Source of the DNA: Arthrobacter sp.
GTDB taxonomy: Bacteria; Actinomycetota; Actinomycetes; Actinomycetales; Micrococcaceae
Direction of reading: 5' to 3'
Assembly: GCA_035466775.1 (NCBI GenBank)
Contig: DATIUQ010000154.1
Location: forward strand, 1,092 to 65,091
DNA length: 64,000 nucleotides
The notes beneath the pieces are model-generated. The model had not been told where the DNA came from. It searched no databases and saw only the letters and a program-made list of their open reading frames with translations. Each line of letters begins with the position of its first letter. The stretch's first letter is position 1. Positions 29,300-34,281 of this stretch are shown piece by piece. Position numbers and translations under genes: made by a program.

Positions 29300-30337
29300 G
29301 TGACACCAGCGCCAATGACCCAGAAGTACTCCACGCTTTCGCCGTCCCTCGCCGTCGGCATCGACGAGCCGGACCGCAACCTTGCTCTGGAACTGGTCCG
29401 CGTCACCGAAGCTGCCGCCATCGCCGGCGGCCACTGGGTCGGGTTCGGGGACAAGAACAAGGCCGACGGCGCCGCCGTCGACGCCATGCGCTCGTTCCTC
29501 CAGACCGTCCACTTCAACGGCGTTGTCGTCATCGGCGAAGGTGAAAAGGACGAAGCCCCGATGCTCTTCAACGGAGAGCGTGTCGGCGACGGCACCGGGC
29601 CCGAGTGCGATGTCGCCGTCGACCCGATCGACGGAACCCGGCTGACCGCCCTGGGCATCAACAACGCCCTGGCCGTCCTCGCCGTCGCCGAGCGCGGCTC
29701 CATGTTCGATCCCTCCGCGGTCTTCTACATGGAGAAGCTCGTGACCGGCCCGGAAGCCGCCGACATGGTTGACCTGCGCCTGCCGGTCAAGCAGAACCTG
29801 CACTTGATCGCCAAGGCCAAGGGTGTCAAGGTCAACCAGCTCAACGTGATGATCCTCGACCGCGACCGGCACCGCCCGCTCGTGGAGGAGATCCGCGAGG
29901 CGGGTGCGCGCACCAAGTTCATCATGGACGGCGACGTCGCCGGCGCCATCGCCGCAGCCCGCTCGGGCACCGGCGTGGACGCCCTGATGGGCATCGGCGG
30001 AACGCCGGAAGGCATCGTCGCCGCCTGCGCGATCAAGTCCCTCGGCGGCGTGATCCAGGGCCGCCTGTGGCCCACCAGCGACGACGAGAAGCAGAAGGCG
30101 ATCGACGCCGGCCACGACCTGGACCGGGTGCTCTCCACCAACGATCTGGTCTCCAGCGACAACTGCTACTTCGCCGCAACGGGCATCACCGACGGCGACC
30201 TGCTCAAGGGCGTGCGCTACTCCAAGGACAAGGTCCTCACCCAGTCCATCGTGATGCGCTCCAAGTCCGGCACCATCCGCTTCGTGGATGGCGAGCACCA
30301 GGCCAGCAAGTGGGAAGGCTACGCGCGCAAGGGCTAG
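29300..30337 (+). CDS. glpX: Class II fructose-1,6-bisphosphatase
   Basis: VIGEGEKDEAPML, DPIDGT, DGDVAG and GGTPEG motifs. Confidence 0.95.
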   Translation: MTPAPMTQKYSTLSPSLAVGIDEPDRNLALELVRVTEAAAIAGGHWVGFGDKNKADGAAVDAMRSFLQTVHFNGVVVIGEGEKDEAPMLFNGERVGDGTGPECDVAVDPIDGTRLTALGINNALAVLAVAERGSMFDPSAVFYMEKLVTGPEAADMVDLRLPVKQNLHLIAKAKGVKVNQLNVMILDRDRHRPLVEEIREAGARTKFIMDGDVAGAIAAARSGTGVDALMGIGGTPEGIVAACAIKSLGGVIQGRLWPTSDDEKQKAIDAGHDLDRVLSTNDLVSSDNCYFAATGITDGDLLKGVRYSKDKVLTQSIVMRSKSGTIRFVDGEHQASKWEGYARKG

Positions 30338-30361
30338 CACCTGCCGCACCAAGCAGAACAC

Positions 30362-30398
30362 CCGGAACCCGGGGCGCCATTCGCGCCCCGGGTTCCGG
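30362..30398 (+). terminator. Hairpin after glpX
   Basis: CCGGAACCCGGGGCG-N7-CGCCCCGGGTTCCGG; no strong U tract. Confidence 0.55.
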
Positions 30399-30438
30399 CG
30401 TTTCCGGAGGGCCCGGCGGCATTGGGTAGGGTGGAACC

Positions 30439-31413
30439 ATGACATGGCTCGTAACAGGTGGCGCAGGATATATCGGTTCGCACGTGGTCTCCGCTTTGCG
30501 AGGAGCAGGCATCCAGGCGGTGGTGATTGACTCGCTCTCCAGCGGACACCGCGAGTTCGTCCCGGAGGACGTGCCCTTCGTCCACGGCACCATCCTCGAC
30601 TCGGAGCTCGTGGCCCGGACCATGCTGGACCACGGCGTGACCGGCGTGATCCACCTTGCCGGCTTCAAATACGCCGGGGTTTCCGTGCAGGAGCCGCTGC
30701 TCACGTATGAGCAGAACGTCACCGGCACGGCCGAACTGCTGAAGGCAATGGAGCTCGCCGAGGTGGACAAGCTGGTCTTCTCCTCCTCGGCCGCCACCTA
30801 CGGCACGCCCACCGGGGACGTCGTCACGGAAGCGACCCCGACGAATCCCGAATCCCCCTACGGGGAGAGCAAGCTGATCGGCGAATGGCTGATCCGTGAC
30901 CAGGGCGTGGCGCGTGGGCTGAAGCACACCTCGCTGCGCTATTTCAACGTCGTTGGCTCCGGCTCGCCCGAACTCTACGACACGAGCCCGCACAACCTCT
31001 TCCCGATCGTGCTCCGCGCGCTGACCGCTGGCAAGACCCCGCGTATCAACGGCACCGACTACAACACGGCCGACGGCACCTGCGTGCGGGACTACGTGCA
31101 CGTCGCCGACCTGGCCACCTCGCACGTTGCGGCGGCCCAGGCCCTCGCCGCCGGTAAGCCGCTGGAACGCATCTACAACCTCGGGTCCGGCGACGGCCTC
31201 TCCGTCCGGCAGATCATGACGGCGATGGCCAACGTCACCGGAATCGACTTCGAGCCGGAGATTGGCCCGCGCCGCGCCGGGGACCCGGACCGGATCGTGG
31301 CCGACGGCACGCTGGCCGCCCGCGACCTGGACTGGAAGATGCGGCACTCCGTCGAGGACATGGTCGCCAGCGCCTACGAAGCGCAGAAGAAAGCAGCCTC
31401 CGCCGGAAACTAG
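30439..31413 (+). CDS. galE: UDP-glucose 4-epimerase
   Basis: TGGAGYIGSH, YGESK (YxxxK), LRYFNV and CVRDYVHVADLA motifs; TAGGGT-N6-ATG. Confidence 0.93.
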   Translation: MTWLVTGGAGYIGSHVVSALRGAGIQAVVIDSLSSGHREFVPEDVPFVHGTILDSELVARTMLDHGVTGVIHLAGFKYAGVSVQEPLLTYEQNVTGTAELLKAMELAEVDKLVFSSSAATYGTPTGDVVTEATPTNPESPYGESKLIGEWLIRDQGVARGLKHTSLRYFNVVGSGSPELYDTSPHNLFPIVLRALTAGKTPRINGTDYNTADGTCVRDYVHVADLATSHVAAAQALAAGKPLERIYNLGSGDGLSVRQIMTAMANVTGIDFEPEIGPRRAGDPDRIVADGTLAARDLDWKMRHSVEDMVASAYEAQKKAASAGN

Positions 31414-31436
31414 GGCCCCGGGCGCCATGCCCCCCC

Positions 31437-31963
31437 CGGGGGACATGCCCAGTGCTCACGCTCACGAATGGACTTAGTGGCTTTCTGTCCGTCCGTCACG
31501 GCAGCGGCGGGGCATGTCCAGCGCTGAGGCCGAGCTTTGGCTGCGCCACAGGGGGCATGTCCAGAGCAGCAGTTTCGGTTTGTGCTGCGTTCCAAAGGAC
31601 ATGTCCAGTTTTCGGCCCTGACGACGCCGTGTCCCGGGGGGACATGCCCAGCGGTCACGCCCAGGGACGGACATAGTGGGCTTATGTCCATCCGCTGGGG
31701 GTGCCGCGGGGCATGTCCGGCGGTTGTCCAGGCCGGTGCTGCCTCCGGCGGGACATGTCCAGTTCTCAGCCCGGACGACGCCGAGCCGCAGGGGACATGC
31801 CCAGCGGTCACGCCCACGTGCGGGCTGCCCTGAAGGGACATGCCCAGCGCTCACGCCCACGTACGGGCTGCCCCGAGGGGACATGCCCAGTGGTCACGAC
31901 CAAGAGTGGACAGAGTGGGCTTGTGTCCGTCCGTCACGGTGAGCGGGGGGCATGTCCAGCGGG
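31437..31963. repeat. Array of 11 regularly spaced near-palindromic 12-mers GG(A/G)CATG(C/T)CC(A/G)G
   Basis: Cores start at 31441, 31510, 31553, 31597, 31640, 31709, 31751, 31793, 31836, 31879 and 31948; spacings 69,43,44,43,69,42,42,43,43,69. Confidence 0.92.
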
Positions 31964-31997
31964 GGAGACGGCTTGGCCCACCCCGGGAAACGGAGGC

Positions 31998-32990
31998 TCA
32001 GCGGCGGAGCGCGCCGCGCAGCCGGGTTGGCACGGCCCGGGCCCCCTGGACGCCGCGGCGGGCGGCTTGCGCGCCCTTCCGTGCCAGCTGGTATCCGTTG
32101 TAGCGCATCTTCTTCACCGGCAGATCCCAGGTTCCGGGGTACGTGACCTCGCGCCCGCCGAACGACTTCTTGAATGCCGTGAAACCGGCCCATTTGTGGT
32201 CGGGCTGGTCCGCGGGGGCGACGCCCCAGAGGTCCACATGCTTCAGGCCCTTGTCCTTGGCATCTGCCATCAGGGTGACCAGCAGCGGAATCCCGGCGCT
32301 GAGCTTCCGGTGCGTATCGTCCAACGCGGCGTGGGCATAGGTGCGGGTATCCGCGGAGTCGTAGGCCAGCGCGGCAGCGATGGGCTCGCCCTCGAGCTCG
32401 GCGACGAAAAGCGTCGCGGCACCCGCCGGCATCAGTGAGCGCGCAACCCGGGTCAGGTACTCATCGCTCTGCGGCTTGAACCCGTTGCGCGCCGCCGTCA
32501 TGTGCAGGAACGCCAACAGTACCGAGATCTCCTCGGGGTCCTGGCTGGAGCGGAACGTCACGCCCTTCTTGTGGATGTTCCGGTACAGGTTCCGGTTCAC
32601 CGGCTTCATGTCCGCGAGGACGTCCTTGAAGTCCCGGTCCAGGTCCACGACCCAGCTCAGTTCGGGCTGCTGGTTGGCCGGGGCGGGCCGGAGGCCGCGC
32701 GTGCGCAGGACGGCGTCGGCGTCGGCAGCGGTGAAGCCGGCATCGACCGGTTCAATCCGGACGAACACCGCCCCGCAGCTGCGGGCCAGATCCCTCAGTG
32801 CCGCCAGGGCGGCGTCGAACGCGGCCAGGGAATCCGCCACCGGGCCGTAGGGTGCGTAGAGGAGTTTCCCGGCCGGGTTGCTCTCCTCGATGGCCAGGAA
32901 GCTCCAGCCCGGGCCCGAGTGCTGGTGCACGGTCCGTCCCAGGCTGCGCTGGAAACCGGCCCACTGGGGGCTCTGCAGGAAGTGGTCCAC
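31998..32990 (-). CDS. FemAB/FemX-family peptidoglycan aminoacyl-tRNA transferase
   Basis: HFLQSPQWA, YAPYGP, FVRIEP, VDLWGV and GFTAFKKSFGG motifs. Confidence 0.85.
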   Translation of the reverse strand: MDHFLQSPQWAGFQRSLGRTVHQHSGPGWSFLAIEESNPAGKLLYAPYGPVADSLAAFDAALAALRDLARSCGAVFVRIEPVDAGFTAADADAVLRTRGLRPAPANQQPELSWVVDLDRDFKDVLADMKPVNRNLYRNIHKKGVTFRSSQDPEEISVLLAFLHMTAARNGFKPQSDEYLTRVARSLMPAGAATLFVAELEGEPIAAALAYDSADTRTYAHAALDDTHRKLSAGIPLLVTLMADAKDKGLKHVDLWGVAPADQPDHKWAGFTAFKKSFGGREVTYPGTWDLPVKKMRYNGYQLARKGAQAARRGVQGARAVPTRLRGALRR

Positions 32991-32994
32991 GGTC

Positions 32995-34281
32995 TCAGGC
33001 TTTCAGTGCGGTCGTGACGGCAAAGGCAAGGGCTGTTCCGGTGGCGCCGGACATGGCGTGGGCATTGACCGGTGCCTCGGCTGCGGGCAGGAACGCGCTC
33101 GCGCCGCGGTCCAGCCGCAGCTCGCCCTTGGGGGAGTCGAGGAGCACGGTTCCGGACACGACGATGATGACGGCGGCCCCCGACTGAGCCAGCGGGACGG
33201 GTTCCGCGCCGGGCTCCAGCTCGATGCGCTGCAGCTGGAATTCACGGAACGGCGGCCGGAAGACCTCCTGGCCCAGCATCGTCGTCTCGGGGCTGAGCAT
33301 CGGGATACCGACGGCTTCGAACGCGACGGTACGGAGCAGTTCCGGCACGTCCACGAACTTGGGGGTCAGCCCGCCGCGCAGCACGTTGTCGGAGGAGGCC
33401 ATGACCTCGATGCCGAGGCCGTGCAGGTAGGCGTGGACGTTGCCGGCCGGAAGGTAGACAGCCTCGCCCGGCGCCAGCGAGACCCGGTTGAGCAGCAGCG
33501 AGATCAGGACTCCCGGATCGCCCGGGTACTGTGCGTTGAGCGTGACGACGGTGGAGAGCTCCGCCTGGTGCGGCGCCGTCGGGGCGCCGGAGACCAGGGC
33601 CGCCACAATCGCGGCCGTCGCTTCGGCGACTTCCTCGCCGCCGGCGATCAGCCGCTCGAAGGCCGAGCGCAGGGCAGCCGGCTCCTCGGGCTGCGCCAGA
33701 TCCTCCAGCAGCAGCAGAACGAGCGGGGGAAGGTCGAGGCCGGCGAGTTCAAAATCCGCCACCAGCAGCTCGAAGACGGCACGCGCTTCCGACGCCGGCC
33801 GGAAGCCGCACAGCGCCTCGAACGGTGTCAGCGCGAAGATCATCTCCGGCTTGTGGAAGGCGTCCTTGTAATTGCGTTCCGTCGCGCCGCGGTCGACTCC
33901 GGCAGCCTCCTCCCGGGCGAACCCTTCCCTTGCCTGCTCGAGAGTGGGGTGCACCTGGAGCGAGAGGGGGCTGTCGGCGGCCAGGACCTTGAGCAGGAAC
34001 GGAAGCCGCGGGCCGAATTCGGCCACGCTGTCGCTGCCCAGATGGTGCTCCGGGTCTTCCCCGATCAGCGCATCCAGTGCCCGGCGGCCGCCGTGGCCTT
34101 CGACCGCCGCGTGGGCTCCGGCGGAGCCGGCAGGGCTAAGCGCCACCGACGGTGAGTCCGGGTGTGCGCCGATCCAGAGTTCCGCCTCAGGGCCGCCGGA
34201 GGCGGGCCTGCCAAGCAGCCCGGCGATGGCCGTTGTGGAGCCCCAGGCATAGGGCCGGAGGACATTCTCGAGTTCGTACAC
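32995..34281 (-). CDS. manA: Mannose-6-phosphate isomerase, class I
   Basis: YAWGS, AELWIGAHP, LSLQVHP, HKPEMI, HAYLHG..IEVMASSDNVLRGGLT. Confidence 0.95.
   Translation of the reverse strand: MYELENVLRPYAWGSTTAIAGLLGRPASGGPEAELWIGAHPDSPSVALSPAGSAGAHAAVEGHGGRRALDALIGEDPEHHLGSDSVAEFGPRLPFLLKVLAADSPLSLQVHPTLEQAREGFAREEAAGVDRGATERNYKDAFHKPEMIFALTPFEALCGFRPASEARAVFELLVADFELAGLDLPPLVLLLLEDLAQPEEPAALRSAFERLIAGGEEVAEATAAIVAALVSGAPTAPHQAELSTVVTLNAQYPGDPGVLISLLLNRVSLAPGEAVYLPAGNVHAYLHGLGIEVMASSDNVLRGGLTPKFVDVPELLRTVAFEAVGIPMLSPETTMLGQEVFRPPFREFQLQRIELEPGAEPVPLAQSGAAVIIVVSGTVLLDSPKGELRLDRGASAFLPAAEAPVNAHAMSGATGTALAFAVTTALKA

Follow-up and report, generated by a model that had tools for sequence, protein, structure and literature searches.

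A clade-specific 79-bp interspersed repeat family in Arthrobacter with conserved half-site geometry and a candidate nuclease partner

In a 64,000-nt stretch of an Arthrobacter sp. draft genome (contig DATIUQ010000154.1, positions 1,092 to 65,091; hereafter the window), a repeat array at 31437-31963 contains three 79-bp modules of identical layout, and our analysis leaves us with little doubt that these are ordinary copies of a lineage-specific interspersed intergenic repeat family, of the repetitive extragenic palindrome (REP) or bacterial interspersed mosaic element (BIME) kind, belonging to one Arthrobacter clade. Proteobacteria are well known for interspersed palindromic repeats, mostly tied to REP-associated tyrosine transposases (RAYTs), and to our knowledge few such families have been described for Actinobacteria. 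Two things are unusual about the present family, namely that conservation falls on a ruler-like layout of six 5-bp half-sites and not on a stem, and that no gene is consistently tied to it other than one for a predicted DNA-binding nuclease, whose fold had no earlier link to repeat families. Taken as one combined statement, the family description and the partnership with this nuclease are in our judgment probable, by a modest measure. Literature searches on Arthrobacter with REP or miniature inverted-repeat transposable element (MITE), on the core sequence and on DUF559 found no paper on a 79-bp family, and no interspersed palindromic repeat family described for Arthrobacter turned up; the family is apparently undescribed. 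Papers that matched the core string dealt with p53 response elements, a coincidence.

A letter-exact check of the window located three stretches with the layout core-N19-GGRCA-N11-TGYCC-N19-core, each 79 bp long and on the + strand, at 31441-31519 (module 1, nhmmer E 1.4e-14), 31640-31718 (module 2, E 6.5e-15) and 31879-31957 (module 3, E 2.5e-14), and thereby confirmed to the base the coordinates and the exact 29/29-bp geometry given by a sequence-only reading of this DNA. The left-hand A-cores (GGACATGCCC) begin at 31441, 31640 and 31879 and the right-hand B-cores (GGGCATGTCC) at 31510, 31709 and 31948, while the inner dyads occupy 31470-31490 (GGACT-N11-TGTCC), 31669-31689 (GGACA-N11-TGTCC) and 31908-31928 (GGACA-N11-TGTCC), so that the offset from outer core to inner half-site is 29 + 29 bp in 3/3 modules. 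Each unit thus comprises six GGRCA half-sites in mirror layout, starting at module positions 1, 6 (inverted), 30, 46 (inverted), 70 and 75 (inverted): an abutting pair (GGRCA directly followed by TGYCC) at each end and a pair split by 11 bp in the middle, with each inner half-site exactly 29 bp from the like-oriented outer half-site. The abutting pair, GGRCATGYCC, occurs 12 times in the window against 0.70 expected (0/100 shuffles reach 12), and 11 of these 12 cores belong to the array. The three modules are mutually 77-80% identical over 91 nt and are therefore not fresh duplicates.

The sequence-only reading had treated the modules as a feature of one array and had suggested searching for the 79-bp architecture genome-wide. 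The array stands, but that search, once run, revealed the module as the unit of a genome-wide, lineage-specific repeat family. Across the source assembly (G000; 3.69 Mb in 289 contigs, 67.8% G+C, 96% complete), we counted 224 GGRCATGYCC cores in 132 clusters, with adjacent cores falling into spacing classes of 29, 32, 43, 56 and 69 bp, the commonest being 69 bp, which corresponds to the 79-bp module (32 pairs, plus 4 at 68). The 13-mer GGGRCATGYCCAG had 57 matches in this genome, compared with 0 for its reversed control. Using a module profile trained on the modules of other genomes only, with the source genome left out, we identified 63 unique non-overlapping module-like matches at 35 loci. 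Several copies of the repeat lie at contig ends, as expected of repeats that break short-read assemblies.

Contigs of carrier drafts (carriers being genomes with modules) often end inside the repeats (G000:C35:52, C39:60 and C166:15; G027:C51:6 and C133:14; G022:C228:70). One such copy, G027:C133:14-92, is a perfect 79-bp palindrome except for the central 7 nt, and fully symmetric copies do occur. We also observed tight arrays of cores with a 29- or 32-bp period and no inner dyads, at L127:3994-4170 (in the metagenome-assembled genome (MAG) MFD09848.bin.4.36) and, in the source genome, at C237:8275-8349 and C7:30297-30367.

The taxonomic range of the family is narrow. A half-module pattern was present in 23 of 61 genomes of the genus, at 1 to >70 copies per strand, and absent from controls. 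Among 201 genomes from 38 genera of the bacterial family, true modules were confined to the genus itself and one other genus (G107), with single matches lacking an inner dyad in two further genera, which we read as chance; the module was not found in 24 sampled genomes from other families of the order. A scan of 185,579 species, each represented by one genome, matched at least 117 stretches, and among the matches listed all titled records were from Arthrobacter or Pseudarthrobacter (including A. oryzae, A. humicola, A. bambusae and P. oxydans), the untitled remainder being MAGs labelled only Actinomycetota or Micrococcaceae. Plasmid and phage collections gave no module match.

We next consider how strictly the geometry is kept. 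In an inner-dyad-anchored scan of the source genome, outer cores (at most 1 mismatch) lay exactly 29 bp away on both sides in 26 of 28 cases, with no other outer-core offset seen between 15 and 45 bp, and 43 of the 52 profile matches spanning the whole module in that genome carried no net insertion or deletion (indel). To avoid ascertainment by exact pattern, we also fetched 3 loci by flank homology from at least 5 other species and scanned them with the profile. At these orthologous loci, 39 of 45 full modules are exactly 79 bp long while the cores have a pairwise identity of 0.91 and the arms one of 0.50, and the linkers that separate the modules of these arrays measure 35 to 56 nt, differing by up to 21 nt between species. 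Indels are frequent beside the modules and rare inside them, and this rarity, in arms whose substitution is near saturation, argues for selection on module length, as the sequence-only reading had supposed of the geometry. That reading had also named free variation of spacing elsewhere and very recent duplication as alternatives, and neither applies here: we find the 29/29-bp layout and the 69-bp core spacing dominant across the genome, and the locus of the window array with one to five modules in five other species, where the flanking genes are 83-91% identical in 300-nt anchors. A further possibility is that the geometry is a neutral legacy, with all copies derived from one 79-bp ancestor too recently for indels to have accumulated. 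Tandem copies within arrays are often ~95% identical or more (C41, C47, C166), so some copies are indeed young, but arms that are ~50% identical between loci and species, in modules of which 83-87% keep their exact length, together with the variable linkers of the same arrays and the well-kept cores, make this explanation very improbable.

The A- and B-cores are reverse complements, as are the inner half-sites, so that foldback is possible on paper, and a long RNA hairpin or a cruciform had been put forward as the selected feature. This did not hold up. Across 211 distinct modules, an average of 9.5 of 19 positions pair between the two 19-nt arms, compared with 10.3±0.14 when partners are shuffled among modules, which amounts to no compensation between the arms and a slight avoidance of pairing. 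In the pairs 8/72, 3/77 and 32/48, the variable positions of the stems change independently of each other (p = 0.22, 0.88 and 0.57, respectively), and C·A mismatches at variable stem positions occur in 51 and 35 of the 211 modules (24% and 17%), a frequency as by chance. Tests of mirror-pair covariation for a long hairpin were negative on 32 and then on 211 modules, and local hairpins within each half (i+j=40, i+j=120) showed no covariation per copy, the one in the X half (see below) being complementary at the consensus level only. Among the window modules, largely complementary arms (36-nt arms, 75%) are found only in module 2, which alone folds as DNA into a long hairpin (-35.4 kcal/mol, z -7.4), while the folds of modules 1 and 3 resemble those of shuffled sequence (z -1.6 and -2.0). 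Since pairing is not maintained while half-sites and spacing are kept, duplex DNA bound by a protein is the most likely state of the module, and we read it as six putative duplex GGRCA half-sites, with base pairing apparently not a conserved feature. The earlier suggestion of a recombination or synapse site survives as one form of a protein recognition site, which we take to be the best reading of the module and for which a candidate DNA-binding nuclease exists (see below), but inversion or site-specific recombination was nowhere seen in the contigs of four soil metagenomes, which cannot show absence.

A rival account holds that the module works folded, as a transcript hairpin or a DNA cruciform, and serves as a bidirectional terminator or 3'-end stabiliser, as has been proposed for REPs. 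Placement fits it: 73 of the 74 arrays with assignable neighbours follow at least one gene end (34 lie between convergent, 39 between tandem and 1 between divergent genes), the first core comes 4-40 nt after stop codons, and at one empty orthologous site (G065) an ordinary small hairpin stands in place of the array. Orientation relative to the transcription of the neighbouring gene is random (11:16), as a symmetric hairpin would give, and the exact reverse complementarity of the A- and B-cores, the stable fold of module 2 and the whole array folded as RNA (z -4.75) likewise count in its favor. The 211-module comparison points the other way, with no compensatory change, arms that pair slightly below chance and independent variable positions in both stems (17-24% C·A mismatches), as do the shuffle-like folds of modules 1 and 3, the absence of a match to any Rfam family and the equal length of two unpaired 19-nt arms, for which a terminator offers no obvious role. 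A T-run after the hairpins is also absent in 3/3 window modules; actinobacterial terminators may have no T-run, however, and its absence therefore leaves termination possible. On balance, we consider it unlikely that the module works in folded form.

The module is polar. Its arms are unequal, one beginning with A(G/T) after the core (X-type) and the other with TC, CG or CA (Y-type), and they are paired inverted, the five commonest mixed classes accounting for 113 modules versus ~20 in named same-class pairs. The better strand scores a mean of 16 bits higher against the module profile, and modules within an array are co-oriented in 33 of 33 arrays. Module 1 of the window, for example, runs from an X-type arm (core then AG) at its left to a Y-type arm at its right, and has a degenerate left inner half-site, GGACT. 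Different species share many of the loci as orthologous sites, which come after housekeeping genes (for instance rpsA and the genes for a Crp-family regulator and a ferredoxin); in the source genome the recurrent neighbours are ABC transporters alone, and at 117 loci in other species they are housekeeping orthologues (rpsA, Crp-family regulator, ferredoxin, thiolase).

Separately, at one locus (G000:C39:22226-22304, equal to L010:1502-1580, with orthologues L179-L183), six species keep the array at the 3' end of one and the same downstream gene, and the gene on the array's other side differs from that of the source genome in 5/5 other species. Arrays may mark or cause breaks in gene order.

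The history of the window locus, which lies between a galE-like and a FemAB family gene, is one of occupied and empty states. It holds three modules in the source genome, two in G004, G027 and G063, five in G076 and one in G010, in which an arm is 1 nt shorter. The gap is empty in G003, G019, G065 and G011, with stop codons 0-81 nt apart (extrapolated from aligned flanks), and these genomes carry modules elsewhere (17-22 in G003, G019 and G011, and some in G065 as well). From these states across species it follows that the locus was occupied in one sub-lineage and later expanded and contracted. In the four soil metagenomes, the same strain's array is found in pieces on contigs and almost unchanged, except that one low-depth contig skips 94 nt, or about two 43-bp units (window 31783-31878). 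Loose ends in the metagenomes join the sequence normally preceding core 31553 to core 31709 (window 31552, 31708), and there are hints of recombination between cores in natural populations. Arrays grow and shrink by local duplication and by deletion between cores, which gives full modules, 43-bp units and solo cores, and the young copies are tandem neighbours only.

Dispersal over ~35 loci, the occupied and empty states of the galE locus, copy numbers from 0 to >70 among congeners and an architecture of two inverted ends, each bearing two sites, with unequal X/Y arms would all suit a MITE, whose halves would be transposon ends with terminal and subterminal sites 29 bp apart, mobilised by a DDE or HUH transposase elsewhere. 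However, target-site duplications of 3-6 bp were not found at offsets 0-14 in 21 solitary copies, and the source genome has no match to a RAYT (Y1 HUH transposase, PF01797) or IS200-type gene, in a search whose control detects 6 of 14 known genomes. No transposase was found among the neighbours in the source draft genome and at 117 loci of 8 kb, where the recurrent genes are the rpsA, Crp-family, ABC and ferredoxin genes, and the same survey found no autonomous element between separated half-modules, which enclose ordinary genes, except for the nuclease gene described below. Plasmids and phages have no match, the dispersed copies are old, with many loci orthologous across species, and head-to-tail arrays with short variable linkers are untypical of MITEs. 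By the tests available the family is not a MITE, and we regard this origin as quite improbable.

Nor is it CRISPR. Short palindromic cores regularly spaced ~43 bp apart might recall an orphan CRISPR-like array without cas genes, but the repeat is only 10-13 bp long, compared with 23-47 nt, there are several spacing classes (29, 32, 43, 56 and 69), and a genome has some 35 such loci, each of them following a gene end. The 'spacers', moreover, are homologous to one another (67-91%) and to those at other loci; this homology and the dispersed distribution refute the idea, to which we assign practically no weight.

A possible partner for the repeats came from the genes that arrays frame. The first case was a 268-aa gene between two arrays in MAG L127, with AbiEi_4 winged-helix and DUF559/MTES_1575-type nuclease domains, and in the source genome a 269-aa gene (G000:C160:5668-6474, - strand) likewise lies between two arrays. 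In all 16 genomes whose locus was printed, and in G242 (17 carriers), 1-9 cores stand on each side of this gene within ~540 bp. A core begins 7 nt after the stop codon in five species, and in most of the 16 genomes a core or degenerate core abuts the motif CACATAG ~60 nt before the start codon. Orthologues with at least 70% identity are present in 20 of 23 carrier genomes versus 0 of 38 non-carriers, the carriers without one being two incomplete assemblies and G026. We also observed, in the 5' flanks of carrier and non-carrier clades (L185-L208), a motif TT(C/T)TCCACATAG or TGCACATAG ~60 nt upstream of the start codon; in most carrier genomes a core or degenerate core directly precedes it, and this conserved motif is probably a promoter or operator.

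In non-carriers, a positional orthologue of 50-55% identity (loci L197-L204, from G001, G005, G006, G084, G014, G080, G069 and G013) is in most cases framed by another palindrome, GCGCAGGGACNGTCCCTGCGC (21 bp, GGGAC-N-GTCCC), which has 1-5 copies per genome and 0 in controls; of the five genomes searched, three have two flanking copies at the nuclease gene, a fourth has one and the fifth gave no match. Most non-carrier loci also have a perfect 14-15-bp hairpin, AGAATGCCACCGG(T/C), between the upstream neighbour and the nuclease gene. In G107, the carrier from the other genus, a 58% orthologue has arrays of GGGCATGYCC on its 5' side.

The encoded protein has Pfam matches to AbiEi_4 and MTES_1575/DUF559; a PDB sequence search gave no match, and NCBIfam gave no useful name. 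Its AlphaFold2 (AF2) model (pLDDT 89) matches AbiEi 6y8q (Foldseek E 1.5e-5), and the C-terminal domain of the model matches the DUF559-like 3hrl and the homing endonuclease I-Bth0305I 3r3p (probability 0.97-1.0), giving a predicted fold that combines an AbiEi-like part with a Vsr/DUF559-like PD-(D/E)XK domain. In an alignment of 24 homologues, the nuclease motif D...ExD...H (E172, D199, E209, D211 and H216) is invariant, and the helix-turn-helix region differs between the carrier and non-carrier clades. Paralogues of this gene, of which a genome has 1-5 or more at 33-38% identity, likewise seem to be enclosed by private inverted repeats, as with one in G018, whose repeats have 27-nt arms at 78% (L212:1412-1438 / 2473-2499), and another in G000 and G004 flanked by the motif GGGGGCAC (L209, L211). 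Private framing repeats may be a general habit of AbiEi_4-DUF559 genes.

Whether this nuclease gene is the partner of the 79-bp repeats we judge to be slightly short of an even call. Several observations weigh against it, and against the module as a duplex binding site spread by the enzyme. The evidence for the link is position and co-occurrence; the carriers appear to be one clade, so that the 20/23 versus 0/38 contrast is confounded by descent, and the framed gene, being one orthologous locus throughout, does not supply many independent cases. RidA-like and inositol monophosphatase genes are array-bracketed in the source genome too, and G026, a complete genome, has 5 modules and no nuclease orthologue. 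The MTES_1575 match falls below the Pfam cut-off (30.9 vs 38.2 bits), and one dimeric protein cannot easily read both abutting and 11-bp-split half-sites. Some copies, such as that in G027:C133, are near-perfect 79-bp palindromes for which a hairpin or cruciform is physically possible. Finally, beyond the missing target-site duplications, the dispersed copies have arms only ~50% identical, no near-identical copy was found at two loci and no movement was observed.

With these points in mind, we tentatively propose a REPtron-like pair, in which a protein made of an AbiEi-type winged helix and a Vsr-like nuclease would bind the GGRCA duplex, regulate itself and multiply the module by cutting and repair; this is a possibility that may well prove wrong. 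Several copies of a sequence-specific protein would bind the module as duplex DNA, the candidate 269-aa protein being the one to recognise GGRCA half-sites, and it may repress its own promoter via the core beside CACATAG. Cutting or nicking at the repeats may then drive their duplication and spread by repair, a scheme that would resemble REP with RAYT or NTS with Ssn but with an unrelated enzyme, and any host benefit, such as the ending of transcripts, would be secondary.

Compared with REP, BIME and REPIN-RAYT systems, the family shares short palindromic extragenic repeats in tens to hundreds of lineage-specific copies, placed after gene ends and between convergent genes; two unlike types paired inverted (X and Y arms here, Y and Z REPs in BIMEs); mosaic arrays whose copy number varies (here full modules, 43-bp units and solo cores); and, as in REPIN-RAYT, a single-copy gene framed by repeats as the presumed partner. 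It differs in having no Y1/HUH (RAYT) gene and no GTAG-type 5' tag, in its six 5-bp half-sites at fixed distances where REPs and REPINs have a 20-40-nt hairpin, in a stem that is not kept by compensatory changes as in REPINs, and in a candidate enzyme with a winged helix and a PD-(D/E)XK nuclease domain. The family is thus REP/BIME/REPIN-like in placement, mosaics, unlike halves and framed gene, and lacks the RAYT, the tag and the hairpin that define those systems.

The nearest published parallel in logic is Ssn with NTS (Chenal et al. 2025, PMC11893778), in which NTS/SRM repeats go with the GIY-YIG nuclease Ssn, a link drawn from co-occurrence and spatial association; the activity of Ssn was shown experimentally, and the NTS is a 30-nt hairpin cut as single-stranded DNA (PMC11893778). 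By analogy, in both systems a small nuclease gene has on either side a repeat found many times across the genome, in both a diverged nuclease in sister species goes with a variant repeat (NTSvar there, GGGAC-N-GTCCC here), and the same two criteria, co-occurrence and spatial association, apply. The enzymes differ, GIY-YIG there and, in the candidate here, Vsr/DUF559-like with a predicted AbiEi DNA-binding part, as do the sites, ours being a 79-bp six-site module without conserved pairing.

The candidate's own relatives offer further parallels. The N-terminal two-thirds of the protein matches the fold of AbiEi, from type IV toxin-antitoxin systems. AbiEi reportedly binds inverted repeats in its own promoter, which would fit the core or degenerate core beside the promoter-like CACATAG in most of the 16 genomes. 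Unlike in AbiEi systems, no AbiEii toxin gene adjoins the candidate, its C-terminus has a nuclease fold, and its presumed sites are amplified genome-wide. To Vsr-like/DUF559 proteins (I-Bth0305I 3r3p; NGO0050 3hrl) the likeness is the C-terminal fold match and the invariant D...ExD...H. Homing endonucleases offer a mechanism for copying DNA by cutting and repair, but the candidate gene, fixed at one syntenic locus, lies in no intron, intein or free-standing homing context, and the sites, not the gene, would be copied. MITEs (Correia elements) and mycobacterial interspersed repetitive units (MIRUs) resemble the module as small non-coding units with inverted ends between genes, and MIRUs also vary in tandem copy number; MIRUs, however, are not palindromic, and for MITEs the target duplication and transposase partner were not found here (21 solitary copies; neighbours searched).

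If the REPtron-like proposal is true, dozens of genes in one clade of Arthrobacter now carry at their 3' ends a 79-bp module multiplied in this way, and the actinobacterial AbiEi_4-DUF559 family would amount to a large, so far overlooked class of site-specific nucleases that have genomic sites of their own. If the link to the nuclease holds, a very common class of uncharacterised actinobacterial proteins (AbiEi_4 + DUF559) would gain a function, a third enzyme class would join RAYT and Ssn among the systems whose nuclease maintains its own genomic sites, and a sequence-specific nuclease with a readable target would be at hand. In practical terms, the arrays break short-read assemblies and at one locus coincide with a loss of synteny, which makes them relevant to the assembly and comparison of soil Arthrobacter genomes.

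The remainder of the window array consists of smaller units. Two solo cores, ~44 bp apart, lie between modules 1 and 2 (31553-31562 and 31597-31606) and are truncated units without an inner dyad, and another, GGACATGTCC, lies at 31751-31760 between module 2 and a run of tandem 43-bp units (31792-31902, + strand, 2.6 copies, 89% matches), each of which is a core with an X-type arm, the central ~36 bp of the module being absent. The array as a whole, with its 11 GGRCATGYCC cores, occupies the gap 31414-31997 between two convergent stop codons, that of the NAD-dependent epimerase (GalE-like) gene (30439-31413, + strand) lying 27 nt before the first core and that of the FemAB family gene (31998-32990, - strand) 40 nt after the last. 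Rfam covariance models run against 30000-33500 at E up to 1 gave no match inside 31414-31997; the only signals, which we take as noise, were sub-threshold ones from Pxr and miRNA models at 30351-30450, where an unrelated hairpin lies. Immediately before the epimerase gene, at window 30343-30417, we observed an imperfect 35-nt inverted repeat (74% complementary, 5-nt loop), which is probably the terminator of the preceding gene.

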